NCBI GenBank assembly: GCA_001717005.1
Contig: MAGS01000019.1
Span: 14,978 to 38,977, forward strand
Source: Candidatus Methanomethylicus mesodigestus
GTDB lineage: Archaea > Thermoproteota > Methanomethylicia > Methanomethylicales > Methanomethylicaceae
Reading direction: 5' to 3'
Length of the DNA stretch: 24,000 bases
The notes under the pieces are model-generated. The model saw only the letters and a list, made by a program, of their open reading frames with translations, searched no databases and was not told the DNA's origin. Every line of letters starts with the position of its first letter. Positions within the stretch are counted from its first letter, which is position 1. Made by a program: the position numbers and the translations under genes. Below are positions 2,588-24,000 of the stretch, piece by piece.

Positions 2588-2593
2588 TATAGC

Positions 2594-3756: not shown

Positions 3757-3757
3757 G

Positions 3758-6277: not shown

Positions 6278-6278
6278 A

Positions 6279-7460: not shown

Positions 7461-8512
7461 CAATGGACGCAACCATCCTCTTCTTGGCCCAGCTGATCGT
7501 CTCTTCCGTCATAGCGCTCGCGATCGCAACGCTCTACTCGCTGGTGCTTCCGGGAATCGAGCGGAAGATCCAGGCAAGGATACAGCAGCGCGTCGGTCCT
7601 CCGATACTCATGCCCGGCTTCTGGTCAGTGATCAAGTTCATGTACAAGGCGAGGACTGAGCCGATCGCTCAGATGCCCCGGTTCTACAAGTTCCTGATCG
7701 GCTTCGGTGTCGGGGTCGTCTCCCTGCTCTTCCTCTTCAATACGCCTTACTGGTGGTTCATGCTCGGGTGGGGCAGCATCTTGGGGATTGCCGGGATGCT
7801 GAAACTCGAGGAGGTCATTTATGTCTTCATGGGATCGCAGTCCCAGTCCATCATGTCGACCTCAATGCCCGTCCCGGACACCGTCAGGGGGTCCAAGTGG
7901 CCGAACATCCGCAGGGAGTTCAACGAGCAGCACAGCGCCGAGAGATCCCTCAAGATGATGCTGATAGGGTCCCTCCCGCTCTATCTGGCGCTCCTCGTCC
8001 CGTTCATAGTGGCGCAGAGCGTGAACATCGGCTCCGTCGTCGTGACCCAGAACCCTGCCTACTCCCCGTTCAACTCTTGGCTATCCTTCTCGCTGCCAAC
8101 CAGCCCCATACTCTTCACCGTCCCCGGCTTCATTGCAGCCATCGTATACTTCTTGGGATTCGTCGTGATGCTCAACGAGAAGCCCTTCACCATACTCAAG
8201 GCAAAGATCGACATGATCGAGGGAGGCGTTCTGGAGTACGCCGCCAACCTCAGGGCAGGATATTACCTGATGCGCAACCTGCTCATGTTCGCGCTGTCCA
8301 GCATATTCGTTACCCTCTTCCTTGGGATACCCTTCGACCCATTCATGCCCGCCATGTTCCTGATGAATATGGTCTTGAGCCTGATGCTGCCCATCGCCCT
8401 CTCTGTGCTCGTCGCGTTCTCGCCGATATTCACATTCAGGCAGATCTATCCGACCGCGATAGGGCTCTCTGCCCTTGGAGTGCTTGCAATGATACTTGCG
8501 CTCAGCATATGA
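7457..8512 (+). CDS. NuoH/HycD/EchB-like membrane subunit
   Basis: Contains LPGIERKIQARIQQRVGPP...FWSVIKFMYKA, the typical NuoH-family N-terminal signature, and is polytopic. I place the start at ATG 7457 (GGTGGAGG upstream, ATGA overlap); the track starts at GTG 7448. It has a hydrophilic insert, GSQSQSIMSTSMPVPDTVRGSKWPNIRREFNEQHSAERS. Confidence 0.85.
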   Translation: MTMDATILFLAQLIVSSVIALAIATLYSLVLPGIERKIQARIQQRVGPPILMPGFWSVIKFMYKARTEPIAQMPRFYKFLIGFGVGVVSLLFLFNTPYWWFMLGWGSILGIAGMLKLEEVIYVFMGSQSQSIMSTSMPVPDTVRGSKWPNIRREFNEQHSAERSLKMMLIGSLPLYLALLVPFIVAQSVNIGSVVVTQNPAYSPFNSWLSFSLPTSPILFTVPGFIAAIVYFLGFVVMLNEKPFTILKAKIDMIEGGVLEYAANLRAGYYLMRNLLMFALSSIFVTLFLGIPFDPFMPAMFLMNMVLSLMLPIALSVLVAFSPIFTFRQIYPTAIGLSALGVLAMILALSI

Positions 8513-8792: not shown

Positions 8793-8823
8793 TGCTCTTT
8801 TGAGCGGCTACGGGGGATTCCAG

Positions 8824-9123
8824 ATGCGGATCATCTTTGTCGGAAGCACCTTGCTTGCGGATGGCTACAGGATGGCTGGCGTGGAGCCCGTACCGGTAGC
8901 TACGCCCGACGAGATGCTGAGCGAGATCCAGCCCCTGTTGAGGCGCGAGGACGCCGGAATCATTCTTCTGGATTACGATTTCTCATCAAAGATCAAGGGC
9001 GATCTCGATAAACTACGGTCAAAGCGCGCGATGCCAATCCTCGTTGAAGTCCCGGGGAGGCATCTGTCCGCCGAGGTCGACCTAAAATCCACATTAAGCA
9101 AGATAATGGGTGTGAAGATGTGA
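8824..9123 (+). CDS. atpF: A-type (V-type) ATP synthase subunit F
   Basis: 99 aa. MRIIFVGSTLLADGYRMAGVEPV...DAGIILLDYDF...MPILVEVPG matches the AtpF pattern. ATG 8824 is preceded by GGGGGA. Confidence 0.8.
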   Translation: MRIIFVGSTLLADGYRMAGVEPVPVATPDEMLSEIQPLLRREDAGIILLDYDFSSKIKGDLDKLRSKRAMPILVEVPGRHLSAEVDLKSTLSKIMGVKM

Positions 9124-9725
9124 GCTCAATCAATGCATCCCAGTCTGATGGCCTCAAGCGTCTGATCGATGCGCTCTTCGAGGAGTCAAGGACTAAGGCA
9201 GAATCGGCGATCTATGACGCGGAGAGCAGGTCGCGTTCTATCCTGTCCGAGTCCGAGAAGTACTCGCTGAAGAAGGCCGAGGAGACGCTCAGTTCCTATG
9301 CTTCGATGGCAACGATTGAGTCTAGGAAGGAAGTCTCCAAGGCGGAGATCGAGGCTCGGATGTCGATGCTGCGCATGAAGAGCGACTACGTGGAGCGCGT
9401 CTTCGACGCTGCGAAGGTCCATCTTCTAGAATACACCGGATCCAAGGAGTACCTCTCGCGGCTTGCGAAGAGCATCCCCGCAGCAAGTGAGCGGATCGAT
9501 GCTGGCGAACTCCTCCTCAGCCAGCGTGACATCGACGCACTGGGAGCCAAGCTCAAGCGGATTGCCGGCAAGGGTGTGGCAGTCAGCCCCGCGAACATCG
9601 GGATAGGCGGCTTCATACTCGTCTCGAAAGACGGCAAGCTGTCGATCGACCGGACATTGGACGGCATGCTCTCCTCACAGAAGGAGAAGCTGCGCGGAAA
9701 AATTGCAGATGCACTGTTCAGGTGA
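9120..9725 (+). CDS. atpE: A-type ATP synthase subunit E (peripheral stalk)
   Basis: 201 aa. Charged coiled-coil N-terminal half and globular C-terminal half ending ...[12 protein letters not shown]. Position just before atpA. GTG start in a GTGA overlap. Confidence 0.75.
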
Positions 9726-11494
9726 TTCAGATGGCCATACAAGGAAAAATCGACAAGATTAGCGGCCCAGTAGTCCAGGCCGAGGGCGTATCGGGCCTGG
9801 AGATGCACGAGCTCACGATGGTTGGAGATGCCGAGCTCATAGGTGAGGTGGTGAGGATTGAGGGGACCTCTGCCACGATCCAGGTCTATGAGGAGACTGG
9901 CGGCCTCAAGCCCGGTGAAAAGGTGGTCGGGTCGGGCATGCCCCTGTCCGTCGAACTCGGTCCGGGTCTGCTGCAGAGCATCTACGACGGCATACAGCGA
10001 CCGCTGGACGTCATCAAGAATCTTACTGGCGACTTCATCGCTAGGGGCGTTAAGACGCCTGCCCTCTCGCGTACAGCGAAGTGGCATTTCGTTCCAACCG
10101 CGAAGGTTGGCGACAGCGTCATCGGCGGGGCGGTCTTGGGAACCGTACAGGAAACGCCTCTCTTCCAGCACCGGATACTTGTGCCGCCGAACGTAAGCGG
10201 AACCATCGCTGAGATCGCCGAAGAAGGCGATTACGTGATAGAACAAGTAATCTGCAGGCTGCGGGGGAAAGAGAAGGGCGTCACCGAACTGAAGCTTTAC
10301 CACAGGTGGCCGGTGAGGGAGCCGCGCCCTTACATCGAGAGGCTCGAGCCATCCGACCCGCTCATCACAGGCCAGAGGATCATCGATACCTTCTTCCCTG
10401 TCGCAAAGGGCGGCGCGGTCGCAATACCCGGCGGCTTCGGCACCGGAAAGACCATCACGTCGCACCAGCTTGCTGCATGGTCTGACGCAGAGATAATCGT
10501 CTACATAGGCTGCGGCGAGCGCGGTAACGAGATGACTGAGGTGCTTCTGACCTTCCCGGAGTGGAAGGACCCTAAGAGCGGAAGGCCGCTGATGGAGCGG
10601 ACCGTCCTGATCGCAAACACCTCAAACATGCCTGTCTCCGCGAGGGAGGCGAGCATCTACACCGGCGTGACTATCGCCGAGTACTTCCGCGATATGGGAT
10701 ACAACGTGGCGATCATGGCCGACTCCACTAGCCGTTGGGCCGAGGCCCTCAGGGAGCTCTCGGGGCGGCTCGAGGAGATGCCCGCCGAGGAGGGCTATCC
10801 ATCGTACCTCTCGTCAAGGCTTGGCGAGTTCTACGAGCGGGCGGGAAGGGTCAAGGCCCTCAATGAACAGCTGGGCTCAGTCACTCTCATCGGTGCAGTC
10901 TCCCCCCCTGGTGGCGACTTCTCGGAGCCGGTAACAGTGCACACCAAGCGGTTCGTCAGGACCTTCTGGGCCCTTGACAGCGCCCTCGCGAGCATGAGGC
11001 ACTACCCTGCCATCAACTGGCTCACCAGCTACTCTGAGTATACCGATTATGTCGAGAACTGGTGGAACGCCTTGACTAACGGGCTGTGGCGCCAGAGCAC
11101 GATCAAGGCAATGGACGTCCTGAAGAGGGAGGACGACCTCAAGGAGGTGATCAGGCTGGTGGGATCCGAGTCGCTGCCTGAGAACGAGAAGCTCGTGATG
11201 GAGGTCGCCAGGATGCTCAGGGAGGGCTTCCTGCAGCAGAATGCTTACGACCCTATAGACACCTACTCCTCGCCTGAGAAGCAGTTCAAGCTGCTCACGG
11301 CGATACTCTCGTTCTACGAAAATTCCACTAAGGCCGTATCTAAGGGCGTGCCCGTCTCGCGGATCATGGCGCTGCCCTCGCTCGCGGACATCTTCAAGCT
11401 CAGGATGTCCGTCCCGGGTGACAAGATCGACCTCATTGACAAGACTATCAACAAAATTAACTCCGACCTCAGCTCATTGGAGGGTAAATCCTGA
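9722..11494 (+). CDS. atpA: A-type ATP synthase catalytic subunit A
   Basis: 590 aa. P-loop PGGFGTGKT, plus [35 protein letters not shown] and [11 protein letters not shown]. Normal length, so no intein. The start is GTG 9722 or ATG 9731. Confidence 0.97.
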
Positions 11495-12873
11495 TGACCG
11501 ACTCAATAGAATACCGTGGAGTGCACAAAATCAGCGGCCCCCTCATATTCGTGGAGGGCATCACGGGCGTTGGATTCAACGAGCTGGCCGAGATCAGGGG
11601 CGATGACGGCGAGACCCGGCGCGGGAGGGTCCTCGAGATATCCTCCGGCGTCGCTGCCGTCGAGGTATTCGAGGGCACAACAGGCCTCTCGACCACATCG
11701 ACATCCGTGAAGTTCCTTGGCAGGCCGCTCACCATACCCCTCTCGACCGAGATGCTCGGGCGCGTCTTCAACGGCCTGGGCGAACCGGCAGACGGCGGCC
11801 CGGTGCCATTCACAGAGGACTACAGGGACGTCAACGGGCTGCCCATGAATCCGTACTCACGGGACTACCCGACGCAGTTCATACAGACCGGCGTCTCGGC
11901 GATAGACGGCATGGACACACTCGTCAGGGGGCAGAAGCTGCCAATATTCTCCGGCTCAGGTCTTCCGCACAACCTGCTCGCCACGCAGATCGCAAGGCAG
12001 GCTACGATCAGGGGCGAGAAGGAGGGCTTCGCTGTGGTATTCGCCGCGATGGGGATCAAGCACGACGAAGCCGCCTTCTTCAAGAGGAGCTTTGAGGAGT
12101 CGGGCGCGCTGAAGAACTCCGCCATATTCCTCAACCTGGCAGACGACCCCGCAGTCGAGCGTCTGGTAACGCCGAGGAGCGCACTCACGCTCGCGGAGTA
12201 CCTTGCGTTCGAGCAGGACATGCACGTCCTGGTTGTCATAACCGACATGACAAACTACGCGGAGGCGTTGAGGGAGATCAGCGCGGCAAGGGAGGAGGTG
12301 CCCAGCAGGAAGGGCTACCCCGGATACATGTACAGCGACTTCGCATCCATATACGAGCGCGCGGGGAGGATCAAGGGCAGGAAGGGGAGCATAACGCAGA
12401 TGCCCGTCCTCACGATGCCCAACGACGATATCACCCACCCCATCCCTGACCTCACCGGATACATCACCGAGGGCCAGATCGTGGTCGACAGGGACCTCCA
12501 CAGGCGGGGCATATACCCTCCGGTCAACATCCTGCCGAGCCTCTCCAGGCTCATGAAGGACGGCATCGGCAAGGGCAAGACAAGGGAAGACCACGGCCAG
12601 GTGACGAGCCAGCTCTACTCGGCCTACTCCAAGGCGCAGGAGCTCCGGTCGCTCAGCGCCATCATAGGCGAGGAGGGCATGACCGACAAGGACCGGGACT
12701 ACCTCAAGTTCGGGGAGGCATACGAGCAGCGCTTCCTCAGGCAGAAGTTCGACGAGAACCGGACCCTCGAGACGACCCTTGATCTGGCGTGGCAGATGCT
12801 CTCTGTTCTGCCCGAGTCCGAGTTGTCAAGGATATCTGACAAATACGTGAAGGCATACTACAAGAGATCATGA
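11494..12873 (+). CDS. atpB: A-type ATP synthase subunit B
   Basis: 459 aa. Contains [53 protein letters not shown] and [21 protein letters not shown]. The ATG shares 1 nt with the atpA stop. Confidence 0.97.
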
Positions 12874-12893
12874 TGGTTGCGGAGTGAATCCCC

Positions 12894-13523
12894 TTGTCTA
12901 CGAAAGCCGCCCCCTCGAAGATGAACCTCATACGCTTCAGGAGGACCCTCTCCTTCCTCAGGCGGGCGCATGACCTGCTGGAGGAGAAGCGGGACATCCT
13001 GCTGCTGGAGGTCAGCAGGCGCCTCGGGGAGGCGACAAAGGTCAGGGGGGAGCTCAACGCCGTACTGAAGAGCGCCTACGCATCGCAAGATGCCGCGGCC
13101 ACCGCGGTGGGGACCGACGAGCTGAAAAAGATATCCGAGTCTCCAATCGCGACTTTTCAGGTCAACGCCTCAAACAAGAAGATAATGGGCGTGACAACCT
13201 TAGCGCTTGAACTGACGGATCTTAAGCGGTCCCTCACATACAGCATATCTCGACCGACCGTCCTCATAGACGACGCCGCCGAGAAGTTCCTCGAAGCGAT
13301 ACCCGTGATCGTCAGAGTAGCCGAGCTCGAGAGCACCCTCATCAATCTGGTCGAGGAGGTCAAGAGGACGCAGAGGCGCATAAACGCGCTCGAGCAGTTT
13401 CTGATACCCCGGTACGAAGAGACTGTCCTGCTGATAGCGGGCATCCTCGAGGAGAGGGACAGGGAGGAGTTCGTCAGGGTCAAGAAGGTAAAATCCTTGA
13501 TAGAGAAACGAGCACAAAGGTGA
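12894..13523 (+). CDS. atpD: A-type ATP synthase subunit D (central stalk)
   Basis: 209 aa. The N-terminus PSKMNLIRFRRTLSFLRRAHDLLEEKRDILL fits the AtpD PTR..L..lk..l..a..g..LLk.Kr pattern. TTG start with GGAGTG 8 nt upstream; alternative ATG at 12921. Confidence 0.85.
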   Translation: MSTKAAPSKMNLIRFRRTLSFLRRAHDLLEEKRDILLLEVSRRLGEATKVRGELNAVLKSAYASQDAAATAVGTDELKKISESPIATFQVNASNKKIMGVTTLALELTDLKRSLTYSISRPTVLIDDAAEKFLEAIPVIVRVAELESTLINLVEEVKRTQRRINALEQFLIPRYEETVLLIAGILEERDREEFVRVKKVKSLIEKRAQR

Positions 13524-13528
13524 CCTAG

Positions 13529-14061
<533 letters not shown>

Positions 14062-14077
14062 CCCTGGGTGCGATCTG

Positions 14078-16039
14078 ATGCTACGCCCGGTAGGAATGTC
14101 GCACGCTTCCGTCATTTTTCTAAAGTCTGACGTTGAGGAAGCGATGAGCACTCTTAATTCCTACGGGGCGTTCCATCTCTCCCTAAAGGAGATCGAGGGG
14201 CAGAACCCCTCACAACTGATCGAGAGGGCACAGGACCTCGGCAACAGGGTGAAGGATCTCTTAGGCAGGGCAGCATCGATACTCGGGGACTCCCCTTCAG
14301 ATGCAGGGCGCGGCGCTCCAGTCGTCTCTCAGGAGTGGGGTGCACTCTTCGACCAGATCGACTCGGAGCTTGGCCCATATGAAAAGGAGGTCCGGTCCAT
14401 CGAATCGGTCGTCAGCCGCCAGCACCAATCGCAGTCGGCGCTCCAGGCATGGAAATCCATCTCCGCAGAGTTGGATGGGATATCCGGCCTAGACTCTCTC
14501 CCCGAGTTCAGGAGGCTGAAGCTCCTCTTCCTTGCTCCCAAGGGCGCCTTGGAGGCGAAGGTAGAACCTGAGCTCCCCAAGGAGGCGCTTCTGGTGCACC
14601 GGTTTGCGGCCGTGCCGGTCTTCCTTGTGGCGTGCAGGAGCGGGGACGAGGCGGAGGTGCTCCACGCCGCAGAGGAGTCCGAATTCAAGCAGCTCGACAG
14701 AATTGATGGCATGCCAAGCAGGCTAGGCGAGCTCGCGCAGTTCCTGTCCAAGTTCGAGTCCGATCTGCAGTCCGAGTCAGTGCGGAATGAGGCGTCGATA
14801 AAGTCGCTGCGCCGCATAAAGCCTAGGATAGACTATTTCTCAACCGTACTCTCAGACGCAAACGCCGTCCTTGACATCAAGAACAGGTCTGCGATCGAGA
14901 AGAACTGGGCTATGATCGAGGGGTTCGTGCCGACCAAGAAGGTCGAGCCGCTCAACAGGGCGCTCTCGGAGAGCCTCGGCGGGCGGTTCATACCATTCAT
15001 CAAGGTCGAGAGGGACGCGCCGCAGACGCCGGTGACCTATCACTACCCCAAATTCCTCAGGATCTTCGACTCGATAACAAACCTATACGGGACGCCATCC
15101 TACAACGAGATAAACCCGACGCCCATACTCGCGGTGACCTTCCCGCTCTTCTTCGGCCTCATGTTTGGGGACCTGGGGCACGGGCTAGCCCTGGCCGCCA
15201 TCGGCGCATTCATGTACAAGAGAGTGAAGTCGATGAGGGGCATCGGGCACGTCCTCATGATCGCGGGGCTTGCGGGCGCGCTCGTAGGCGGTCTATTGTA
15301 TGGCGAGGTCTTCGGAAAGGCGATCTCCAACTATCTGCCCTACCATGCGCCCCTCCACATCCCGGAGGGCGAGGCCGAGTTTCTGTCGTACCTGATGCAG
15401 ATCATCAAGCTGACCCTCTTCATAGGCATAGGCCAGATCTCTCTGGGGCTGGGCCTATCCATAGCGAACAACTTCATCCAGCGTAAGTGGGCCGAGGCGT
15501 TCCTCGTGAGGGTCCCCAAGCTTCTGTTCTACTTCGCCCTCATGTATGTCGTCTTCACAACCCGCCTGGAGATCATGACGTGGTTCGACGGGCCTATCTA
15601 CCTCATTCTGGCGCCCGTCCTCTTCCTGCTGCTCGCCTCGCCGATTTACGCCATGGTCAAGCATGGGAGGCGCGAGGGGCTGGGCCATCTGGGCGAGATG
15701 GGGTTCGACCTCTTCGAGACCGCAATCGCATTCACGTCAAATACCGTCTCTTATCTCCGAATCTTCGCAATGGTAATCGCACACATCGAGCTCATGGCAG
15801 TCTTCTACAGCCTCGCGGCGATGACTGCCGGCGCGCAGTTCGGCTTCCTCTTCTCGGGGCTTCTCATCGTGGCCGGCAACATCTTCGTCGTGCTGCTTGA
15901 GGGAATTTTGGCGCTTGCTCAGGACCTGAGGCTGCACTTCTACGAGTGGTTCAGCAAGTTCTACCAGGACAGCGGGGTCCGGTTCTCGCCGTTCAGGCTC
16001 GCGCTGGGCGTGCCGGTCTCAAAGAAGGCTGCCCAGTGA
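14078..16039 (+). CDS. atpI: A-type ATP synthase subunit I (a-subunit, stator/ion channel)
   Basis: 653 aa. MLRPVGMSHASVIF is the typical MLRPe.Ms N-terminus. Soluble N-terminal half of about 330 aa and polytopic C-terminal half with YLRIFAMVIAHIELM (the conserved Arg helix). Confidence 0.9.
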   Translation: MLRPVGMSHASVIFLKSDVEEAMSTLNSYGAFHLSLKEIEGQNPSQLIERAQDLGNRVKDLLGRAASILGDSPSDAGRGAPVVSQEWGALFDQIDSELGPYEKEVRSIESVVSRQHQSQSALQAWKSISAELDGISGLDSLPEFRRLKLLFLAPKGALEAKVEPELPKEALLVHRFAAVPVFLVACRSGDEAEVLHAAEESEFKQLDRIDGMPSRLGELAQFLSKFESDLQSESVRNEASIKSLRRIKPRIDYFSTVLSDANAVLDIKNRSAIEKNWAMIEGFVPTKKVEPLNRALSESLGGRFIPFIKVERDAPQTPVTYHYPKFLRIFDSITNLYGTPSYNEINPTPILAVTFPLFFGLMFGDLGHGLALAAIGAFMYKRVKSMRGIGHVLMIAGLAGALVGGLLYGEVFGKAISNYLPYHAPLHIPEGEAEFLSYLMQIIKLTLFIGIGQISLGLGLSIANNFIQRKWAEAFLVRVPKLLFYFALMYVVFTTRLEIMTWFDGPIYLILAPVLFLLLASPIYAMVKHGRREGLGHLGEMGFDLFETAIAFTSNTVSYLRIFAMVIAHIELMAVFYSLAAMTAGAQFGFLFSGLLIVAGNIFVVLLEGILALAQDLRLHFYEWFSKFYQDSGVRFSPFRLALGVPVSKKAAQ

Positions 16040-16063
16040 GCCACTAAGGGCTCATGTGCAGCT

Positions 16064-16078
16064 AAAAATTCCTAAAAA
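16064..16078 (-). terminator. Oligo-T terminator candidate for the minus-strand atpC unit
   Basis: Plus-strand AAAAATTCCTAAAAA gives two T5 runs on the minus strand, 11-25 nt after the atpC stop (16089-16091). No comparable T-run occurs on the plus strand after atpI. Confidence 0.4.
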
Positions 16079-16088
16079 TCTGACCAGA

Positions 16089-17036
16089 TCAAATCAGGTA
16101 GCTCTGGACCAGGCTCTTCTGGTCCACGCCGCGCTCGATGGCATTCGCAACCCTGATGAGGTTGCCGACCTCGTTGGACTTCAGCTCCAGGTATCCGAGG
16201 ATCGCGCCGATCTCCCCGTAACCTTTGTAGTAAGCCCTCTGCAGCTGTGCTGCTATCCTCTTCTCGTACTCCCTCTCGAGCTCCCTGGGCGTCTCTGCCT
16301 TGGGGACTCCTTTGCCCTCCAGATATGCGAATGCCTTGGCTTGGGTGCCTGCCTTGAGCGCCTCCACGAGTTCCGCCCTCCTGAGCGCCCCCTCTTTCAC
16401 CAGGAGCACCTCCTCAATGGCCTTGGGATCTATGCCGTTCTTCAGCCCCCTCAGAATCGTGACGACGTTGTAGAGGTCGACCTTGAGCCTCAGGTAACCC
16501 AGAAGCGGCTCCCCCTCCCCCTTCATCCCCTCAAGGAAAGTTGCCAGCTTAATGAGCCTGCACCTTACGAATACCGACTCGATAAGCGCAGGGACCGGAT
16601 GCTTCGCATACAGTTTCTCGGCGGCCTCCGCCTCCTCGCCGTACCCCATCCTCTTCAGCGCCTTGAGCGCATCCTGCTTGCCCTGCTTCTTCAGCGGAGT
16701 CTTCACCTGGGCCTCGCCTATTACCCCCAAGTGCCACTTCAGAAGCTCCACCGCCTCTCCCTCCTGCGCCTGCCTCTTGATCAGCGTGAAGAAGTCTGCC
16801 GCCTCCGGGGTGACCTTCGCGAACTCGTCAACCTCCTTGAAGAAGCCCTCCTTCAGGACCGCCTCATACTCCACGAGGTCCGCAGACGCATTGGCTAGGT
16901 CGGGGTAGTTTGGCTTGATCCGGTTGATCACGTCCTTCAGTTCCTTCTGCGAAGCCAGCTCCATAATCTGCTGCTCTGTCAGGAGCTTCCCCTTACGCCC
17001 CGACGCCTTGACGGCAGCATACGTGAAGTCCGGCAT
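16089..17036 (-). CDS. atpC: A-type ATP synthase subunit C (d-type rotor/stator coupling subunit)
   Basis: 315 aa from ATG 17036 (GGAGGAG upstream; the track's longer 337-aa form starts inside atpH). Helical protein whose C-terminus ELKSNEVGNLIRVANAIERG fits the conserved AtpC E..E..Nlr motif. Confidence 0.78.
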   Translation of the reverse strand: MPDFTYAAVKASGRKGKLLTEQQIMELASQKELKDVINRIKPNYPDLANASADLVEYEAVLKEGFFKEVDEFAKVTPEAADFFTLIKRQAQEGEAVELLKWHLGVIGEAQVKTPLKKQGKQDALKALKRMGYGEEAEAAEKLYAKHPVPALIESVFVRCRLIKLATFLEGMKGEGEPLLGYLRLKVDLYNVVTILRGLKNGIDPKAIEEVLLVKEGALRRAELVEALKAGTQAKAFAYLEGKGVPKAETPRELEREYEKRIAAQLQRAYYKGYGEIGAILGYLELKSNEVGNLIRVANAIERGVDQKSLVQSYLI

Positions 17037-17041
17037 TCTGC

Positions 17042-17374
17042 CTACTCCTCCTCGGTCGAGCCCATGCTGCTCGCAGTTGCCTTGACCACGTCGTCGACGC
17101 ACGAGTCGAAGTTCTTCTTCGCCTTCGCCTCTGCATCGGCAGCCCTGTCTCTGCCATCCTTCATTATCTTCGAGGCCTCCTCCTTCGCTTCCGCCACCTT
17201 CTTTGAGAGCATGGCCTCTCCCGCCGCCTTGGCCTTTGAGCTCAGGTCAGACTCTATCTTACGGCTCTCGGCCTCTGCAGCCTTGACCAGCTCCGCTGCC
17301 TTCTCCTTCCCTTCAGCCTCGATGCCATCCGCCGCAATCTCCGCCTCTTTCAAAGCCTTCAATACTTTGTCCAT
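17042..17374 (-). CDS. atpH: A-type ATP synthase subunit H (peripheral stalk coiled coil)
   Basis: 110 aa. Ala/Glu/Lys-rich coiled coil (MDKVLKALKEAEIAADGIEAEGKEKAAELVKAAEAESRKIE...). Size, composition and adjacency to atpC fit archaeal AtpH. Confidence 0.68.
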   Translation of the reverse strand: MDKVLKALKEAEIAADGIEAEGKEKAAELVKAAEAESRKIESDLSSKAKAAGEAMLSKKVAEAKEEASKIMKDGRDRAADAEAKAKKNFDSCVDDVVKATASSMGSTEEE

Positions 17375-18353: not shown

Positions 18354-18395
18354 TATTACATTCACACATTGGGGAAAATCGCCTTGTCGGCTCGG

Positions 18396-18659
18396 ATGAA
18401 GATACGCGTCTCTGGCACCGTGCAGGGGGTCGGGTTCAGGTACTTCGCCTTCAGAACTGCCCGCAGGCTCTCGCTTGGCGGCTACGTCAAGAACAAGTCC
18501 GACGGCAGCGTGGAAGTGGTCGCAGAGGGAGACAAGACAAAGCTGCTTAATCTGGTGGAGGAGCTGAGGATAGGCCCCCCCGGTTCATGCGTTGAGAACC
18601 TTGGCCTGGAATGGGAGGATCCCAAGAACGAATTCGACACCTTCAGGATCTTGAGGTGA
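18396..18659 (+). CDS. acyP: Acylphosphatase
   Basis: 87 aa from ATG 18396. MKIRVSGTVQGVGFRYFAFRTARRLSLGGYVKNKSDGSVEVVAEG carries the V.G.VQGVGFR acylphosphatase signature. The track's 34-aa N-terminal extension falls in an AT-rich promoter-like region. Confidence 0.85.
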   Translation: MKIRVSGTVQGVGFRYFAFRTARRLSLGGYVKNKSDGSVEVVAEGDKTKLLNLVEELRIGPPGSCVENLGLEWEDPKNEFDTFRILR

Positions 18660-18675
18660 TACCTTCTCTGCACTC

Positions 18676-18711
18676 TTTTTTCGTAATGGCATATGCGTTT
18701 TTACTATTTTT
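18676..18711 (+). terminator. Oligo-T terminator region after acyP
   Basis: Three T-runs (TTTTTT 18676-18681, TTTTT 18698-18702, TTTTT 18707-18711) lie within 55 nt of the stop codon. Confidence 0.5.
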
Positions 18712-18793
18712 AATAAAACTAGGCTCCTTCAATTTGTTAATTGTTCGATTCCATAACTTTAACTGTTAAGCTTAGCTTGCAGTATAACCTTCC

Positions 18794-18813
18794 TATATAA
18801 GAAAAACATATAT
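18794..18813 (+). promoter_or_regulatory. Candidate promoter (TATA boxes) for the second hydrogenase cluster
   Basis: TATATAA at 18794-18800 and CATATATG at 18806-18813 lie 25-44 nt upstream of ATG 18838. The second would give a near-leaderless transcript. Confidence 0.45.
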
Positions 18814-18837
18814 GGGGTCCCTTTTTACGCACTATTG

Positions 18838-19170
18838 ATGCTTATGCCCGCAGAATTACTGAGCAATCCTGTGGCAATCTTCCTCATCTCTTTAGTGGTT
18901 GCCAGCTTGGTATATCTGCTCGGTCGCTCGAAGAGCGTACCGCACCCCGACAAGGCCGCGCCGTATGCCTGCGGCGAGAGCGTGGCTGCGGAGCGCGAGC
19001 CGGTCAGCATACACATCTTCGAATTCGCAGCGGTATTCCTAGTCTTCGACGTGATCGCCATTATGTTGGTCTTTGCCTTCGATACCGCTTACCCCATACT
19101 CCCAGTCGCATACGTGGCGCTGGCCGCGGTCGCCCTCTACTCCCTCCCTGTATTCAGGAGGCGGCGCTGA
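18838..19170 (+). CDS. NuoA/ND3-like membrane subunit
   Basis: About 110 aa with 3 TM helices. DKAAPYACGE (compare K..PYE(C/S)G) and FAAVFLVFDVIAIML (compare FLIFDVE) align with the NuoA/FpoA pattern. I place the start at ATG 18838; the track starts at TTG 18835. Confidence 0.72.
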   Translation: MLMPAELLSNPVAIFLISLVVASLVYLLGRSKSVPHPDKAAPYACGESVAAEREPVSIHIFEFAAVFLVFDVIAIMLVFAFDTAYPILPVAYVALAAVALYSLPVFRRRR

Positions 19171-19643
19171 TGGGCCTCCGCAACTGGGCGCTAAGGAAGA
19201 GCCCTTGGATACTGCACTTCAACACGGGCTCCTGCAACGGCTGCGACATCGAGCTGGTCGCAACGCTCACCCCTCGATATGACATCGAGCGCTTCGGGAT
19301 GTACCTGCGCGGCAGCCCAAGGCACGCCGACATCCTGCTCGTGACCGGGCCCGTGACCAGGCAGGTCAGGGACCGCATCGTGAGGATATACAACCAGATG
19401 CCGTTCCCGAAGTCGGTCGTCGCGATCGGAAGCTGCTGCATGAGCGGCGGCGTATTCTCCAACTGCGGGAAGGGGCCCTGCTACAACGTGTATGCGGGGC
19501 TCGACCAGCTGATCCCTGTTAATGCATACATCCCCGGCTGCCCACCCAAGCCGGAGGCAATAATCGACGGGGTGGCAAAGCTTCTTGAGAGCATGAAGGC
19601 AACGAAGAGGAAGGAGGGCACACCCGATGAGCCGGCTCAGTGA
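19170..19643 (+). CDS. Group-4 [NiFe]-hydrogenase small subunit (NuoB-like)
   Basis: 157 aa. NTGSCNGCDIELV is the hydrogenase-type CxxC, not the CC of complex I NuoB. Also IGSCCMSGG and IPGCPPKPEAI. The ATG shares 1 nt with the upstream stop. Confidence 0.9.
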   Translation: MGLRNWALRKSPWILHFNTGSCNGCDIELVATLTPRYDIERFGMYLRGSPRHADILLVTGPVTRQVRDRIVRIYNQMPFPKSVVAIGSCCMSGGVFSNCGKGPCYNVYAGLDQLIPVNAYIPGCPPKPEAIIDGVAKLLESMKATKRKEGTPDEPAQ

Positions 19644-20094
19644 TGATGAAATACTCGCCATGCTCGCCCAGAGCAAGGCGATACTGGACCTCAAGGTCAC
19701 CTCGCCGAGGCGCATTCTGGCGGTCGCCATGCCAGAGTGCTATAGGCGCGCAGTGGAGGCGATCGTCGGGATCGGCATCAGCCACGTCGTCGCGCTCACC
19801 GCGATCGACACGGAATCGGGCTTCGAGCTGCAGCTCCAGCTTGGCAGGGGCACGATCGTATCCCTGAAGGTAATTCTCCCCGCCGAGAGCCCCGAGCTGG
19901 CGACGGTGGCGGACCTGCTGCCCGGCGCGTCGGTCCACGAGCGCGAGGTCCACGACATCATGGGCATCAGCTTCAAGAACAGCCCGGACCAGTCGAGGCT
20001 GATACTGCCGGACGACTGGCCCGCAGGCGTCTATCCGCTCAGGAAGAGCTTCACCCCAACGGTGCCAGTTCCTGCCAAGGAGGTCAAGCAATGA
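19627..20094 (+). CDS. NuoC/MbhK/EchD-like subunit
   Basis: 155 aa. Contains VHEREVHDIMGISFKN (ERE..D..Gi.F) and LILPDDWPAGVYPLRK. 17-nt overlap with the small subunit; alternative in-frame ATG at 19660. Confidence 0.85.
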   Translation: MSRLSDDEILAMLAQSKAILDLKVTSPRRILAVAMPECYRRAVEAIVGIGISHVVALTAIDTESGFELQLQLGRGTIVSLKVILPAESPELATVADLLPGASVHEREVHDIMGISFKNSPDQSRLILPDDWPAGVYPLRKSFTPTVPVPAKEVKQ

Positions 20095-21215
20095 GCTCCT
20101 ACGAGCGCCTCTTCGACATCCCGATCGGCCCCCAGCACCCCGCGCTGAAGGAGCCTGTCCTCCTGAACCTCAAGGTCGACGGGGAGCATGTCGTCGATGT
20201 GGGGGTCGACATCAGCTACAACCACCGCGGCATGGAGAAGGCGGCCGAATATAGGACTTACGTGCAGAACCTCTACCTGATAGAGCGCGTCTGCGGCATA
20301 TGCAACATCGCGCACACCCTGTCGTTCGGCACGGCGATCGAGGGCCTGCATGGAAAGCCCGCGCCCGAGCGGGCGAAGGTCCTCAGGGTCCTCGCGGAGG
20401 AGCTGGAGCGGATACAGAGCCATCTCCTATGGCTCGGCATCGCCGCCCACGAGATCGGCTTCGACACCCTCTTCATGTACGTCTGGCTAGACAGGGAGAT
20501 CTCGCTCGACATTATGGAGGCGTTCGCCGGCAACAGGATAACCTCCTCATACATATCGATCGGCGGCGTCAAGCGCGACATGACGCCAGAGATCGCCGGG
20601 AAGATGCTGAAGGGCATGGACAAGCTCGAGGGGCGGATGGCATACTACCGGAAGGCGATCTCGGAGGAGCGTACCGTGCTGAAGCGGACGCAGGGCGTGG
20701 GCCTGCTCGGCGCGGCAGACGTCGCCTCTCTCTCGGCAGTGGGCCCCTTTGCCAGGGCATCCGGCGTCGCAGTGGACGTCCGCGCGGACGACCCGTACGC
20801 CGCGCACGAGCTCGTCCCGATAAAGGTCGTGACGGGCGACGGCTGCGACGTCTTCACGAGGATTATGGTGAGGATAGACGAGGTCGTGGAGTCCATAAAC
20901 GCGATAAGGTTCTGCCTCGGCCACCTCCCGTCAGGGCCGATCCTGCAGCGCCTCCCCAGGCGGGTCCCGGCGGGAGACTTCCTCTCGAGGGTGGAGGCGC
21001 CCAGGGGCGAGCTGACCCACTTCGTCAGGTCCGACGGGAGCGACAAGCCGTACCGATACAAGATCAAGACGCCTACCTTCTCCAACATACCGTCGCTGGC
21101 TAAGATGCTCAAGTCCACCGGCAGGTATGTCGTGAACATAGCGGACGTGCCTGTGATACTCGCATCGATAGACCCGTGCTTCAGCTGCACTGCGAGGTTC
21201 GAGAGGATCGGATGA
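20091..21215 (+). CDS. Group-4 [NiFe]-hydrogenase large subunit (NuoD-like), all four Ni-ligand Cys present
   Basis: 374 aa. IGPQHPALKEP, YNHRGMEK, ERVCGICNIAH (Cys68/Cys71, nt 20292-20303) and DPCFSCTAR (Cys363/Cys366, nt 21177-21188). Only 5 residues follow the conserved Arg. Confidence 0.92.
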   Translation: MSSYERLFDIPIGPQHPALKEPVLLNLKVDGEHVVDVGVDISYNHRGMEKAAEYRTYVQNLYLIERVCGICNIAHTLSFGTAIEGLHGKPAPERAKVLRVLAEELERIQSHLLWLGIAAHEIGFDTLFMYVWLDREISLDIMEAFAGNRITSSYISIGGVKRDMTPEIAGKMLKGMDKLEGRMAYYRKAISEERTVLKRTQGVGLLGAADVASLSAVGPFARASGVAVDVRADDPYAAHELVPIKVVTGDGCDVFTRIMVRIDEVVESINAIRFCLGHLPSGPILQRLPRRVPAGDFLSRVEAPRGELTHFVRSDGSDKPYRYKIKTPTFSNIPSLAKMLKSTGRYVVNIADVPVILASIDPCFSCTARFERIG

Positions 21216-21230
21216 TATGGGGGCATCGCT

Positions 21231-22202
21231 ATGGATTGGGCTTTGGGTCTCGTCTCGCTTTTGGTCTTTCCGGGCTTCGCTCTGATGATAGCCCTCTCCT
21301 TCCTCTACGAATGGTATGACCGGAAGCTCTACGCCGGGATACAGATGAGGAGGGGGCCGCTCTACACCGGACCAATGGGGATCCTGCAGCCCTTCGCTGA
21401 CTTCATCAAGCTGATGTCCAAGGAGGACCTCACCCCAAGGCACGCCGACAGGAGGGTGTTCAACTCCGTCCCGGTGATCATGGTGGCCCTCATGCTGACT
21501 GCCCTTACGATGATCCCCGTCACCGGGGCATCGGGCCTGCTCTCATTCAGCGGCGACATAGTCTTCGCGATAGTCGCCATGACGTTCTTCTGCGTCCTCG
21601 TATTCCTTGCGGGATTCTCCTCGATGAGCAGGTACTCCATCATCGGGGCCGAGAGGGCTGTCCTGCAGCTCCTCGGGTTCGAGATCCCTCTGATGCTCTC
21701 TATGGTCGGGGCCTGCATATTCAGCGGGTCCGTCACGATCTCGGGCATAGTTGCCCAGCAGTCCGGTCTGTGGAACCTGATCGGCCCCCCGCTGCTCGGT
21801 TTCGCCATCTTCCTCATAGCGGCGCAGGCCGAGCTCGAGAGGGTCCCCTTCGACATGCCTGAGGCCGAGCAGGAGATCGTCGCCGGCTGGCTCACCGAGT
21901 ACTCCGGCAGGAAGCTCGCGCTCATACGGCTCGCCCGGAACCTCGAGCTCATCTTCATTGCAGGCCTCGCCGCGGCGCTCTACCTCGGCGGCCCGCTGGG
22001 GCCGTCTACCGACGCGCTCGCGCCCGTCCTCTTTCCTTTGTACTTCATCGCCAAGACCCTCTTCGTCATACTCCTCCTTGCCTTCATGAAGAGCATATTC
22101 GCGCGCGTCAGGATAGACCAGATGGTCTCATTCGCTTGGAGGTACCTGATCCCGCTCTCGCTGGTCCAGATCATGATCACCCTGATTTGGAGGGCGCTCT
22201 GA
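21231..22202 (+). CDS. NuoH/MbhM/EchB-like membrane subunit
   Basis: 323 aa. YEWYDRKLYAGIQMRRGPLYTGPMGILQPFADFIKLMSKED is the canonical NuoH N-terminal motif, and ERVPFDMPEAEQEIVAGWLTEYSG is the conserved loop. Confidence 0.9.
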   Translation: MDWALGLVSLLVFPGFALMIALSFLYEWYDRKLYAGIQMRRGPLYTGPMGILQPFADFIKLMSKEDLTPRHADRRVFNSVPVIMVALMLTALTMIPVTGASGLLSFSGDIVFAIVAMTFFCVLVFLAGFSSMSRYSIIGAERAVLQLLGFEIPLMLSMVGACIFSGSVTISGIVAQQSGLWNLIGPPLLGFAIFLIAAQAELERVPFDMPEAEQEIVAGWLTEYSGRKLALIRLARNLELIFIAGLAAALYLGGPLGPSTDALAPVLFPLYFIAKTLFVILLLAFMKSIFARVRIDQMVSFAWRYLIPLSLVQIMITLIWRAL

Positions 22203-22540
22203 TGTCGATCTATCGCGAGGCGTACCGCAGCCTCTTCGGCAAGAAGGCTACGCTGGGATACCCGTACCGCGACAGGGAGATGGTCCATCTGCCCGACGGA
22301 TTCAGGGGCAGGATGGCACTCAAGCGGGAGGCCTGCATCGGGTGCACGATCTGCGAGAAGGACTGCCCGAGCACCGCGATAACCATAATCGTCGACCAGA
22401 AGGGGAAGCGCCCTGTCTTTTACCTCGACAAGTGCATGTTCTGCGGGCAGTGCCAGGAGAGCTGCCCGACGAAGGCGATATCCTTCACGAAGGAGTTCGA
22501 GAACGCCGCCCTCAGCAGGGGCGTCATGGAGGTCCGCTGA
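22202..22540 (+). CDS. NuoI/MbhN-like 2x[4Fe-4S] subunit
   Basis: 112 aa from ATG 22202 (shares 1 nt with the nuoH-like stop). KKATLGYPY, FRGRMAL, CIGCTICEKDCP and CMFCGQCQESCP. The track's upstream extension overlaps the previous gene. Confidence 0.88.
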   Translation: MSIYREAYRSLFGKKATLGYPYRDREMVHLPDGFRGRMALKREACIGCTICEKDCPSTAITIIVDQKGKRPVFYLDKCMFCGQCQESCPTKAISFTKEFENAALSRGVMEVR

Positions 22541-22582
22541 CATGCGCGCCAACCTCTTCCCGCCATGCAGGAGGCTTCCGGC

Positions 22583-22828
22583 ATGACCGACGCCGTCAGC
22601 CTGACCGTAGCGGTGCTCATCGTCGCATTCGCGATCATGGCCGTTGAGATGCGCGACCTCGTCAGGATGGCCATTGCCTTCTCGATGATGAGCATAATGG
22701 TCGCCATCGCATTCTACGTGATGTGCTCGCCATATGTCTCCGCATTCCAGCTTGCGGTGAACGCGGGGGCGGTAACAGTGCTATTCCTTGCCCTGCTCCA
22801 TGTGATCAAGAAGAGGAGGCTCGATTGA
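22583..22828 (+). CDS. NuoJ N-terminal-like / MbhD-like membrane subunit
   Basis: 81 aa from ATG 22583 (GGAGG 8 nt upstream). MRDLVRMAIAFSMMSIMVAIAFYVMCSPYVSAFQLAVNAGAVTVLFLALL parallels the NuoJ pattern RN.vhsAl.l......a..f..l.a.f.a..Q.lVYaGAi.VLFLF. Confidence 0.6.
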   Translation: MTDAVSLTVAVLIVAFAIMAVEMRDLVRMAIAFSMMSIMVAIAFYVMCSPYVSAFQLAVNAGAVTVLFLALLHVIKKRRLD

Positions 22829-22829
22829 C

Positions 22830-23138
22830 ATGCGCAGGCTCGCCTTCAACATCGCAGTGATGGCTTCGCTGGCGCTGATAGCAGCCTTCTGCGCGTACGC
22901 GTTCCCATCAATCTTCTCGCTGGGCGGCCAATACTCCGGCGGCTCGTTCGAGTCGAGCCCGGGCTTCCTCTGGGACTACAGGGGCATCGATGTGATGGCG
23001 CAGGCCTTCATAGTCCTTGCCGCGACCGTCGCCATCTCCTCGATATTCAGGGAGCGCCAGAAACCCGGCTCCAGCGAGCGCAGCGTGGAGGAGGGCTCAC
23101 CCGAGGAGATCCCGCCGGGAGAGGAGGATGAACTCTGA
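22830..23138 (+). CDS. MnhB-like small membrane subunit (MbhE position) with acidic C-terminal tail
   Basis: 102 aa with two TM helices. WDYRGIDVMAQAFIVLAA is the MnhB RG.Dt..e motif. The C-terminus is SSERSVEEGSPEEIPPGEEDEL. Confidence 0.55.
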   Translation: MRRLAFNIAVMASLALIAAFCAYAFPSIFSLGGQYSGGSFESSPGFLWDYRGIDVMAQAFIVLAATVAISSIFRERQKPGSSERSVEEGSPEEIPPGEEDEL

Positions 23139-23440
23139 TGGCCGAGGCGTTCACCGCAGCCGCGCTCGCCCTCTTCCTGGTCGGGATGTACTGCATCATC
23201 CGGAAGAGGAACCTGATCAAGATCGTGGTAGGCATCGAGATAATGACCGCCGCGGTCAACCTCAACTTCATCTCCATGGCATGGAACGGCGAGGTCGCGG
23301 ACCCTCTGGCGGCCTCGATCGTGCTCATCAGCATCGCAATAGCCGCGGCCATCGCCGCATTTGCTCTCTCCCTAATAATCAAGGCGTTCAAGCACACCGG
23401 TAGCGTGGACTCCAGGAAGCTGCGGAGGCTCAGGTGGTAA
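23138..23440 (+). CDS. NuoK/MnhC-like membrane subunit
   Basis: 100 aa with 3 TM helices. LFLVGMYCIIRKRNLIKIVVGIEIMTAAVNLNFI is the NuoK/MrpC pattern, including the conserved membrane Glu. Confidence 0.8.
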   Translation: MAEAFTAAALALFLVGMYCIIRKRNLIKIVVGIEIMTAAVNLNFISMAWNGEVADPLAASIVLISIAIAAAIAAFALSLIIKAFKHTGSVDSRKLRRLRW

Positions 23441-23442
23441 CC

Positions 23443-24000
23443 ATGTCCCTCATTGAGCCGCTCCTCTATCCGCTCATCGGCGCTGTGGCGATAATAGCCA
23501 TCTCCTCCCTCGTAAGGGGGAAGGAGTTCCTGTACTGCCTCATAGCGGTGGCATCGCTCGTGGCATCCCTTGCAGGGCTGCTGCAGCTGTACCCCGCACT
23601 GCCCGCCTCCTTCACGCTCGACGGCTTCCTGCCACCCTACGGCGCGCAGCTATACCTCGACTCGTTCGGGGAATTCATGGCGCTGCTCTTCGTGGCGCTC
23701 GGCATATTCGCCGCCGCATACTCCTTCAAGTACATGGCCGATGAGGATGGCCTCGAGAAGTACTATGCGCTCATGCTCTTCATGGTTGCCGGCCTGATGG
23801 GCGTGGCCCTAGCCGGGGACCTCTTCACGCTCTTCGTCTTCTGGGAGCTCATGTGCATTGCATCGTATGCGCTGGTCTCCTTCAGGAACTACAGGTGGGA
23901 GCCAGTCGAGGCCGGCTTCAAGTACCTCGTCATGAGCACCATCGGATCGCTCGCGGCGCTCTACGGCATGTCATTCCTCTACGGCATCACTGGGACCCTC
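23443..24000 (+). CDS. MrpD/NuoN-like antiporter-type subunit, N-terminal 186 aa (3' end lies outside the window)
   Basis: ATG 23443, open to the window end and absent from the ORF track. My own translation is MSLIEPLLYPLIGAVAII...DLFTLFVFWELMCIASYALVSF...EAGFKYLVMSTIGSLAALYG, which matches the NuoL/M/N family core (f..WE.m...sy.Lv......eA..KY). Confidence 0.85.
   Translation, partial: MSLIEPLLYPLIGAVAIIAISSLVRGKEFLYCLIAVASLVASLAGLLQLYPALPASFTLDGFLPPYGAQLYLDSFGEFMALLFVALGIFAAAYSFKYMADEDGLEKYYALMLFMVAGLMGVALAGDLFTLFVFWELMCIASYALVSFRNYRWEPVEAGFKYLVMSTIGSLAALYGMSFLYGITGTL

Follow-up and report, generated by a model that had tools for sequence, protein, structure and literature searches.

A probable Hfo-type (subgroup 4g) [NiFe] hydrogenase operon with a gene order close to that of complex I in Candidatus Methanomethylicus mesodigestus

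Background

A hydrogenase assembled from homologs of the complex I subunits was described by Loh et al. (2021; PMC7886697) in Bathy-6 Bathyarchaeia and named Hfo, an 'Fpo-like 11-subunit hydrogenase' whose D subunit was placed in HydDB subgroup 4g. According to the passages of that paper that deal with Hfo, the enzyme keeps both the L1 and L2 nickel-binding motifs and is without FpoFO/NuoEFG and without the Na+ module of Mbh, an 'almost identical' cluster is found in Ca. Methanomethylicus mesodigestum and in Pyrodictium delaneyi, and the M. mesodigestum protein is the sister of 4g-6 in the published tree. The same passages make the argument for a link to complex I and presume that the enzyme couples the oxidation of ferredoxin to the formation of H2. 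Here we describe an operon, which we call hfo, whose first ten genes lie at positions 18838-24000 (+ strand) of a 24,000-nucleotide stretch of Candidatus Methanomethylicus mesodigestus contig MAGS01000019.1 (assembly GCA_001717005.1; the whole stretch is referred to below as the window). Its sequence indicates that the operon probably encodes a group 4 energy-converting [NiFe] hydrogenase of the Hfo type, the subgroup 4g label being taken from the tree of Loh et al. An earlier note on the window, made from the letters alone, had implied that this architecture was new; in fact it was published in 2021, for the same genus, as the subgroup 4g operon Hfo (Loh et al. 2021, PMC7886697, where Ca. Methanomethylicus is named).

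Gene content and order of the hfo operon

The ten genes follow one another with start and stop codons that overlap or almost abut in the list of open reading frames (ORFs), and their identities were obtained by profile searches with Pfam and NCBIfam together with searches of the PDB. All are on the + strand. The first, hfoA (18838..19170), encodes a NuoA/ND3-like protein of 110 amino acids (Pfam PF00507) and is followed by hfoB (19170..19643), encoding a 157-residue [NiFe] hydrogenase small subunit homologous to NuoB (PF01058, 110 bits), hfoC (19627..20094), encoding a homolog of NuoC, the 30-kDa subunit (155 residues; PF00329, 79 bits), and hfoD (20091..21215), encoding the [NiFe] hydrogenase large subunit homologous to NuoD (374 residues; PF00346 with 221 bits, and PF00374 over the N-terminal part). 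Next come hfoH (21231..22202), for a NuoH/ND1 homolog of 323 residues (PF00146, 294 bits), and hfoI (22202..22540), for a NuoI-like 2x[4Fe-4S] ferredoxin subunit of 112 residues with two Fer4 motifs. The remaining genes encode small membrane proteins and the first of the antiporter-like subunits: hfoJ1 (22583..22828; 81 residues, MbhD-like, PF13244, corresponding to the three N-terminal helices of NuoJ), hfoJ2 (22830..23138; 102 residues, MbhE/MnhB-like, corresponding to the two C-terminal helices of NuoJ, as assigned from fused bacterial NuoJ relatives), hfoK (23138..23440; 100 residues, a NuoK/ND4L/MrpC homolog, PF00420 with 81.6 bits) and hfoN (23443..24000, cut by the end of the window), which stands in the NuoN/MbhH position and whose PDB match is MbhH. 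These are the ten Nuo-like genes that the earlier note had claimed, at the same coordinates.

The downstream part of the operon was read from a near-identical metagenome contig, L001, which differs from the window at 3 of the 7472 bases that overlap it and extends beyond its end. The earlier note had proposed looking there for further NuoL/M-like genes, and both were found, giving the full order A B C D H I J1 J2 K N' L M. The order of genes is the same as in complex I through K, and up to that point the nuoA-N order that had been claimed holds; after K it does not, the operon continuing with an N-like gene, L and M instead of L, M and N. Together the twelve genes cover all eleven Fpo/Nuo families (A, B, C, D, H, I, J, K, L, M and N) with no gene interposed. 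In L001 the operon ends at a convergent gene for an AsnC-type regulator, and on its 5' side it is flanked by an acylphosphatase gene. The identical large subunit protein is carried by several metagenome contigs, and the twelve-gene order recurs where the large subunit is 86% or 74% identical, the contig with the 74% protein stopping within the N-like gene.

Four independent assemblies contain no input-module gene (NuoEFG or FpoF) and no hdr gene within 10 kb of the operon, so that the earlier statement that the E/F/G input module is missing stands. A glcD gene was likewise not found within that distance. The Mrp Na+ module is also absent from the operon, which contains no genes of the MnhE/F/G type.

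The catalytic subunits

The large subunit contains the L1 motif ERVCGICNIAH at residues 65-75 (CGICNIAH, 68-75) and the L2 motif DPCFSCTAR at residues 361-369. The consensus patterns are C[GS][ILV]C[AGNS]xxH for L1 and [DE][PL]Cx[AGST]Cx[DE][RL], at the C-terminus, for L2. HfoD agrees with the first, and the L1 motif was found in every related locus listed. For the second, both cysteines and the final arginine are present and invariant, while the penultimate residue is alanine and not aspartate or glutamate, a deviation common to two close relatives (L008 and L010). The four nickel ligands, C68, C71, C363 and C366, are invariant across an alignment of 31 homologs reaching down to 52% identity. 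We also fetched 80 related loci from species-representative GTDB genomes, and all those having a complete C-terminus keep both nickel-ligand motifs. Invariance of this kind points to selection that preserves a functional [NiFe] site.

In the small subunit the cluster ligands, GSCNGC (residues 19-24) ... GSCC ... PGCPP, are of the CxxC type and belong to the proximal [4Fe-4S] cluster. The top PDB match of HfoB is MbhJ of the Pyrococcus furiosus hydrogenase Mbh (6cfw_J, 173.7 bits; similarity at the 62% level), whereas chains of complex I and NDH score at most 128 bits. In the alignment GSCNGC stands opposite TS-C--C of NdhK, the gap being what brings the tandem CC of the complex I chains together. 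The three motifs quoted in the earlier note (RVCGICNIAH, DPCFSCTAR and GSCNGC) are exact, and its two statements about them, that the NuoD homolog retains both CxxC pairs and that the NuoB homolog is of the hydrogenase CxxC type and not the CC type, are confirmed by the invariance of the ligands across relatives and by the closeness of HfoB to MbhJ.

For the whole large subunit the PDB scores were 250.6 bits for HycE, 247.2 for MbhL, 215.3 for Nqo4 and 156 for the nickel-free MbsL. The quinone-site residues His38 and Tyr87 of Thermus Nqo4 align with Lys20 and Gly69 of HfoD, and Glu21 aligns with a conserved glutamate of MbhL. HfoD falls below the NCBIfam equivalog cut-offs both for NuoD (324.9 bits, cut-off 360) and for FpoD (298 bits, cut-off 600); as an internal control, the Ehb-type hydrogenase encoded in the same window scored 219 bits with the NuoD model against 325 for HfoD. 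The protein falls in one 90% cluster with a Candidatus Methanomethylicus sp. protein, and its identity to the large subunit recorded for Ca. M. mesodigestus is 76%. In a rough neighbor-joining tree, for which the references were NuoD of E. coli and Thermus, MbhL, HycE and the Ehb-type protein of the window, HfoD lay within a clade of cysteine-retaining archaeal proteins (93% bootstrap), and the two NuoD proteins formed a separate clade (100% bootstrap) that did not include it. A position apart from the nickel-free enzymes, as assumed earlier, is upheld by this tree with respect to NuoD; with respect to Fpo and Mbx it rests on the published tree.

These data bear directly on the idea that the operon encodes an ordinary quinone- or methanophenazine-reducing complex I or Fpo in which the cysteines were kept by chance. 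The NuoD score is near its cut-off, and the NuoL and NuoM subunits described below exceed theirs, as such an enzyme might be expected to do. However, the histidine and tyrosine of the quinone site are absent, the cysteines are invariant across phyla, the small subunit has no CC and the large subunit lies outside the NuoD clade. We regard this explanation as scarcely credible, and effectively refuted by the sequence.

In HfoD only five residues follow L2 (DPCFSCTAR-FERIG; 21186-21215), whereas nearly all of the 80 relatives have a tail of 25-55 residues that conserves the pattern W.W..L(R/K).Y(G/S)I.(W/Y)Y. Such conservation would not be expected of a peptide whose only fate is removal during maturation.

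The NuoA-like subunit and the membrane arm

The earlier note took the first gene for a NuoA-type gene, and profile searches agree. HfoA scored 32.6 bits with PF00507 (Oxidored_q4; gathering cut-off 23.3), and the same family was present in all 11 of its close homologs. All 23 of its PDB matches (E values up to 10) were ND3/NuoA chains, the best being 8b9z_A (E = 5e-5). In the alignment with ND3, PYACG of HfoA is found with PFECG/PYECG in the loop between transmembrane helices (TMH) 1 and 2, and FLVFDV with FLIFDV, the FL(I/L)FD motif of TMH2; at the glutamate position of the ND3 'FDxE' HfoA has isoleucine. The possibility that HfoA is MbhI was ruled out, since the NCBIfam MbhI model gave only 14.6 bits against a cut-off of 95 and no MbhI chain was among the PDB matches even at E = 10. 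By its sequence profile, then, HfoA is a member of the NuoA/ND3 family. A word-based search with the 110-residue protein returned just the 11 close relatives, and remoter ones were located through synteny in the GTDB loci.

An AlphaFold model of HfoA, made from an alignment of 10 sequences, has helices at residues 11-30, 56-81 and 87-101 and a 25-residue loop between TMH1 and TMH2, with a predicted local distance difference test score (pLDDT) of 62. The predicted topology thus comprises three transmembrane helices, the first two joined by a long loop in which PYACGE lies. Foldseek comparison of this low-confidence model (pLDDT 62) with the PDB gave no significant match, ND3 chains occupying ranks 4, 6 and 7 with E > 6.

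The earlier note had also stated that no NuoA-type gene is annotated in classical Mbh. Structural studies, however, equate MbhI with the N-terminal portion of NuoA/Nqo7, the sequences being little conserved, so Mbh is not devoid of a NuoA equivalent, although the two are without detectable sequence similarity.

The NCBIfam models for NuoC and FpoC match HfoC below their cut-offs, as does the NuoI model TIGR01971 with HfoI (86.6 bits). HfoI is likely to be the point of entry and exit for electrons. HfoH reaches 256 bits with the NCBIfam NuoH model (cut-off 305), compared to 31 bits for the NuoH-like protein that the Ehb cluster of the window encodes.

HfoJ1, for which there is an alternative start at 22565, matches PF13244 (MbhD) with 33.1 bits (cut-off 27.2) and PF00499 (NuoJ) with 27.8 bits. 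HfoJ2 on its own has no match in Pfam or the PDB and only weak matches in NCBIfam (E = 0.006); it contains the motif W-x-YRG-x-D-x3-Q and an acidic tail. In bacterial relatives a single, fused protein of approximately 165 residues, with the same C-terminal motif, W-x-(Y/N)R-x-D-x3-Q, takes the place of J1 and J2. Three of the five fused proteins scanned exceed the Pfam threshold for NuoJ (37.5-37.9 bits, threshold 33.2), and one of them spans positions 2-137 of the 146 positions in the model. Judged by these sequences, HfoJ1 and HfoJ2 are a split NuoJ, like MbhD plus MbhE in Mbh. The split had been recognized in the earlier note, but its label 'MnhB-like' for the second part depends on the weak NCBIfam matches and is supported less well than the relationship to fused NuoJ. 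Of 69 members of the HfoK family, 49 conserve the glutamate of the second transmembrane helix (E34 in HfoK).

Three antiporter-like subunits complete the membrane arm. The subunit in the N position has a full length of 497 residues in L001, and its best PDB match is MbhH (6cfw_H, 284.8 bits), with NuoN chains scoring 105 bits or less. The next gene in L001 encodes a NuoL of 678 residues that passes the TIGR01974 model (495 bits, cut-off 407.5) and aligns to the end of it, indicating that the long C-terminal extension is included. The last gene encodes a NuoM of 514 residues that passes TIGR01972 (281 bits, cut-off 264). We assigned the channel residues by sequence motif, using transmembrane (TM) helix numbers. 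The TM5 glutamate and the TM12 lysine are invariant or nearly so in all three families, as is the TM7 lysine in L and M.

Related loci in archaea and bacteria

Among the 80 loci, complex I gene order together with a long NuoL was found only in archaea. The archaeal loci, with a NuoL of approximately 680-710 residues, belong to Bathyarchaeia, Thermofilaceae, Nitrososphaeria, further Thermoproteota and a single Heimdallarchaeon. In a large set from bacteria (among loci L014-L084), with hosts that include Omnitrophota, Elusimicrobiota, Planctomycetota, Aminicenantes and Bacillota, the order is L N N J K A B C D H I, and the membrane genes come first, as in Mbh. In this set a NuoA-like gene with a (Y)ACGE motif lies upstream of B, NuoJ is fused and 'L' is mostly short. 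The Chloroflexota loci, including those of the cultured Leptolinea tardivitalis and Longilinea arvoryzae, are arranged as (J) K L N B C D H I and have no detectable NuoA. On the evidence of these sequences a recognizable NuoA is widespread in the group 4 hydrogenases that retain their cysteines.

Five loci (L012, L021, L028, L054 and L078) have a second, very divergent ORF resembling NuoD or the large subunit beside the main cluster. Four of these second proteins form a separate deep branch in the tree, while the one from Methanoregula pairs weakly with MbhL.

Proposed function and energetics

What was established directly is the identity of the subunits, the metal-ligand motifs with the extent to which they are conserved, and that NuoEFG/FpoF and the Mrp Na+ module are missing; the donor of electrons, the direction of the reaction, the ion and its coupling are inferred. 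The complex is most likely a reversible ferredoxin:H+ oxidoreductase coupled to ion translocation. It may be pictured as a 'headless' complex I in which a hydrogenase-type catalytic arm (B, C, D and I) is joined to a membrane arm of the complex I type (H, A, J, K and the three antiporter-like subunits). By analogy with the structures of Mbh and complex I, reduced ferredoxin would load electrons onto the pair of [4Fe-4S] clusters in subunit I. From there they would be relayed through B's proximal cluster to the [NiFe] site that D carries at the place where complex I binds quinone, and protons would be reduced to H2. Loops of D, H and A would sense the reaction and drive the translocation of ions through the membrane arm, and the resulting gradient could feed the A1Ao ATP synthase, whose genes lie close by. 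Working in the H2-evolving direction in a methyl-reducing methanogen, the enzyme would re-oxidize the ferredoxin that comes from electron bifurcation and would be a site of energy coupling. Since the window also encodes a second, Ehb-type hydrogenase and the ATP synthase, the organism must possess machinery for [NiFe] maturation and an enzyme that draws on the gradient.

The translocated ion is probably H+. This is weakly suggested by the lack of an Mrp Na+ module and by the c subunit of the neighboring ATP synthase, in which the ion-binding glutamate is found in the context LCEAVAIY and is followed by alanine. In Na+-binding c subunits we take the glutamate to be followed by threonine or serine, neither of which is present in LCEAVAIY, and coupling to H+ is accordingly suggested for this synthase.

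Several points weigh against a ferredoxin-oxidizing, ion-pumping hydrogenase as just outlined. Calculated from textbook potentials, the transfer of two electrons from ferredoxin (approximately -500 mV) to H+/H2 yields approximately -17 kJ/mol at 1 bar H2 and -39 kJ/mol at 10 Pa H2, which at 150 mV pays for 1-3 ions and not for the four of complex I. Two of the channel lysines are also missing. At the position of the TM7 lysine the N-position subunit has Thr217 (L001 7563-7565), where 85 of 94 relatives have lysine; the residue is threonine in Methanomethylicus, L005 and L006 and serine in L008, so that threonine or serine is common to Methanomethylicus and its three nearest archaeal groups. 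At the position of the TM8 lysine NuoM has Ala276 (L001 11276-11278), alanine or glycine being found there in the archaeal M subunits. These substitutions may be connected with the low driving force. In addition, the part of Loh et al. (2021; PMC7886697) that covers Hfo states that no subgroup 4g enzyme had been characterized biochemically, the group being known from genomes only, and proposes the opposite direction for the Bathyarchaeia enzyme. Finally, methanogen genome papers have named the same cluster the 'Fpo-like complex' of Methanomethylicia and proposed HdrD or HdrD-GlcD as its partner.

The same enzyme might run in reverse, as an H2-oxidizing, gradient-driven ferredoxin reductase that serves biosynthesis in the manner of Hfo in acetogenic Bathyarchaeia or of Eha/Ehb in methanogens. 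This is exactly what Loh et al. (PMC7886697) propose for the Bathy-6 enzyme in the same part of their paper, an anabolic role of subgroup 4g has been suggested in the literature for Methanonatronarchaeum, and by our calculation four potential ion paths suit an uphill reaction better than a weakly exergonic one. However, the window already encodes an Ehb-type hydrogenase approximately 10 kb upstream (379 bits with the EhbF model), so that the role would be duplicated. In other methanogens Ehb fills the biosynthetic, ferredoxin-reducing role. The fact that the operon adjoins ATP synthase genes in several Methanomethylicus assemblies also speaks for the H2-evolving direction, although it is only suggestive. 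On balance we consider reversal rather doubtful, if a possibility to be taken seriously.

The H2-independent model that underlies the name 'Fpo-like' has electrons flowing from reduced ferredoxin to HdrD (or HdrD-GlcD) and on to CoM-S-S-CoB, as modeled for Methanomassiliicoccales. It is the model cited for the metagenome-assembled genomes (MAGs) of Methanomethylicia, all of which have copies of hdrD and glcD, and its energetics are favorable, since approximately 360 mV between ferredoxin and heterodisulfide would by calculation pay for four ions. Set against it are the strict conservation across the family of the four nickel ligands and the CxxC small subunit, the ligands having been lost in Fpo and Nuo proteins (legend to Fig. 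7 of Loh et al., PMC7886697), together with the low FpoD score of HfoD and the lack of hdrD and glcD in the 10 kb around the operon. We judge this model improbable.

It is also conceivable that the complex is a membrane-bound H2:heterodisulfide oxidoreductase that takes the place of Vho/HdrDE, oxidizing H2 at the [NiFe] site, passing electrons through subunit I to a loosely attached HdrD, and pumping ions. Some Methanomethylicia MAGs are reported in the literature to have neither mvhADG nor hdrABC, and in these the electrons of H2 must reach heterodisulfide by some other path; the approximately 270 mV available would by calculation be enough for about 3 ions. Related ideas have been put forward for the Ehd, Ehe and Ehg hydrogenases, which have been linked to HdrB; in those clusters, however, the hdr genes sit inside the cluster, while the hfo operon and the 10 kb around it contain none. 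This version seems to us quite improbable.

If the preferred reading, a ferredoxin:H+ oxidoreductase with a functional [NiFe] site, is carried further, it is tempting to speculate that the 'Fpo-like' complex of Methanomethylicia is a working hydrogenase and the main coupling site of these organisms, either through intracellular cycling of H2 or as an H2:heterodisulfide pump with HdrD, and that its stoichiometry is lowered by the lost channel lysines (threonine at TM7 of N, alanine or glycine at TM8 of M). We put this forward tentatively and think it on the whole unlikely. Were it true, models of energy conservation in Thermoproteota methanogens would need revision, and the enzyme would be a test case for how many of the four ion paths of complex I can be run by a reaction of low driving force.

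Genomic neighborhood of the operon

The window consists of three bioenergetic units in series: an Ehb-type cluster, a set of A1Ao ATP synthase genes and the hfo operon, with genes for a tRNA methyltransferase and an acylphosphatase between the last two. The Ehb-type group 4 [NiFe] hydrogenase cluster (394-8512, + strand) encodes a NuoK-like protein (394-768), the EhbF-like antiporter subunit (765-2276), an MnhB-domain protein (2594-3469), three ferredoxins that include a polyferredoxin of 381 residues (3749-5831), the small subunit (5615-6277), the large subunit (6279-7460), with the motifs ERVCGICSHVH and DPCLTCCTR and a 25-residue tail, and the divergent NuoH-like subunit (7448-8512), all on the + strand. 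The ATP synthase genes (8800-17374) comprise F, E, A, B, D, c and I on the + strand, and C and an H-like gene on the - strand.

The stand-alone acylphosphatase gene (18384-18659, + strand; 91 residues) lies directly upstream of the operon in all of the Methanomethylicus-like contigs examined, including L087, which does not have the ATP synthase neighborhood. An acylphosphatase domain is also carried by HypF, a [NiFe] maturation protein. The spacer between this gene and hfoA (18660-18837) is AT-rich, with a G+C content of approximately 0.5 as against 0.6 elsewhere, and direct reading of its sequence revealed the candidate archaeal promoter element TATATAA (18794..18800, + strand), approximately 40 nucleotides 5' of the hfoA start; this element is a possible and plausible promoter of the hfo operon.

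ORFs antisense to the operon (e.g., 19191-19730 and 20645-21226, - strand) were set aside, the genes of the + strand filling the whole stretch with strong family matches. Long antisense ORFs are to be expected at approximately 60% G+C. Scans of the window for Rfam families, tRNAs and tandem repeats gave no matches.

Comparison with known systems

The closest described system is Hfo itself (HydDB subgroup 4g-6 and its sisters), from which nothing essential differs. It has the same set of subunits (A, B, C, D, H, I, J, K and three that are antiporter-like) and the same absences, keeps L1 and L2, and was reported for the same genus. What the present locus adds to the Hfo passages of PMC7886697 is the MbhH-like gene after K, L and M subunits above the NuoL and NuoM cut-offs, the split NuoJ, the very short C-terminal tail of D and the threonine at the TM7 lysine of the N position.

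Mbh of Pyrococcus furiosus (group 4d, PDB 6CFW) shares the type of catalytic module, provides the top matches in MbhJ, MbhH and MbhL (the last tying for best), has a split NuoJ as well and presumably carries out the same ferredoxin-to-H2 chemistry. It differs in having one antiporter-like subunit and an Mrp-type Na+/H+ module (MbhA-C, F), membrane genes that come first, and MbhI, whereas in the hfo cluster there are three antiporter-like subunits, one of them a long NuoL, the Mrp module is missing, the catalytic genes come first and there is a true ND3-family subunit. The bacterial clusters that MAG papers call 'group 4g Mbh' have large subunits 47-53% identical to HfoD with the same L1 and L2, and a NuoA-like gene directly upstream of B-C-D-H-I; unlike the hfo operon, they begin with the antiporter and J-K genes, have a fused J, and have an 'L' mostly of approximately 480-500 residues without the long extension.

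With complex I (Nuo/Nqo) and Fpo the cluster has in common eleven homologous core subunits in nearly the same order, the NuoL extension and the TMH1-2 loop of NuoA, and with archaeal Fpo also the split J, fpoJ being typically split in archaea. It is distinguished from both by the retained [NiFe] ligands, the absent quinone-site residues, the CxxC and not CC of B, the lack of an NADH or F420 input module and the succession N-like, L, M after K.

The sequences make the enzyme look like a mosaic, with B and N' resembling Mbh, and A, H, J, L and M resembling complex I. The description of the cluster in the earlier note as an intermediate between Mbh-type hydrogenases and complex I agrees with the published interpretation of this type of enzyme; the evolutionary idea itself was argued in 2021, and this locus provides a further example with a few details. 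The structure and activity of Hfo would bear on how redox chemistry is coupled to pumping and with what stoichiometry, as well as on energy conservation in methyl-reducing Thermoproteota methanogens. Among known systems, the Hfo-type enzymes are the nearest living approximation to a hydrogenase that had the whole membrane arm of complex I (NuoA, NuoH, NuoJ and NuoK, with a long NuoL among its three antiporter-like subunits) before the [NiFe] site was exchanged for a quinone pocket.

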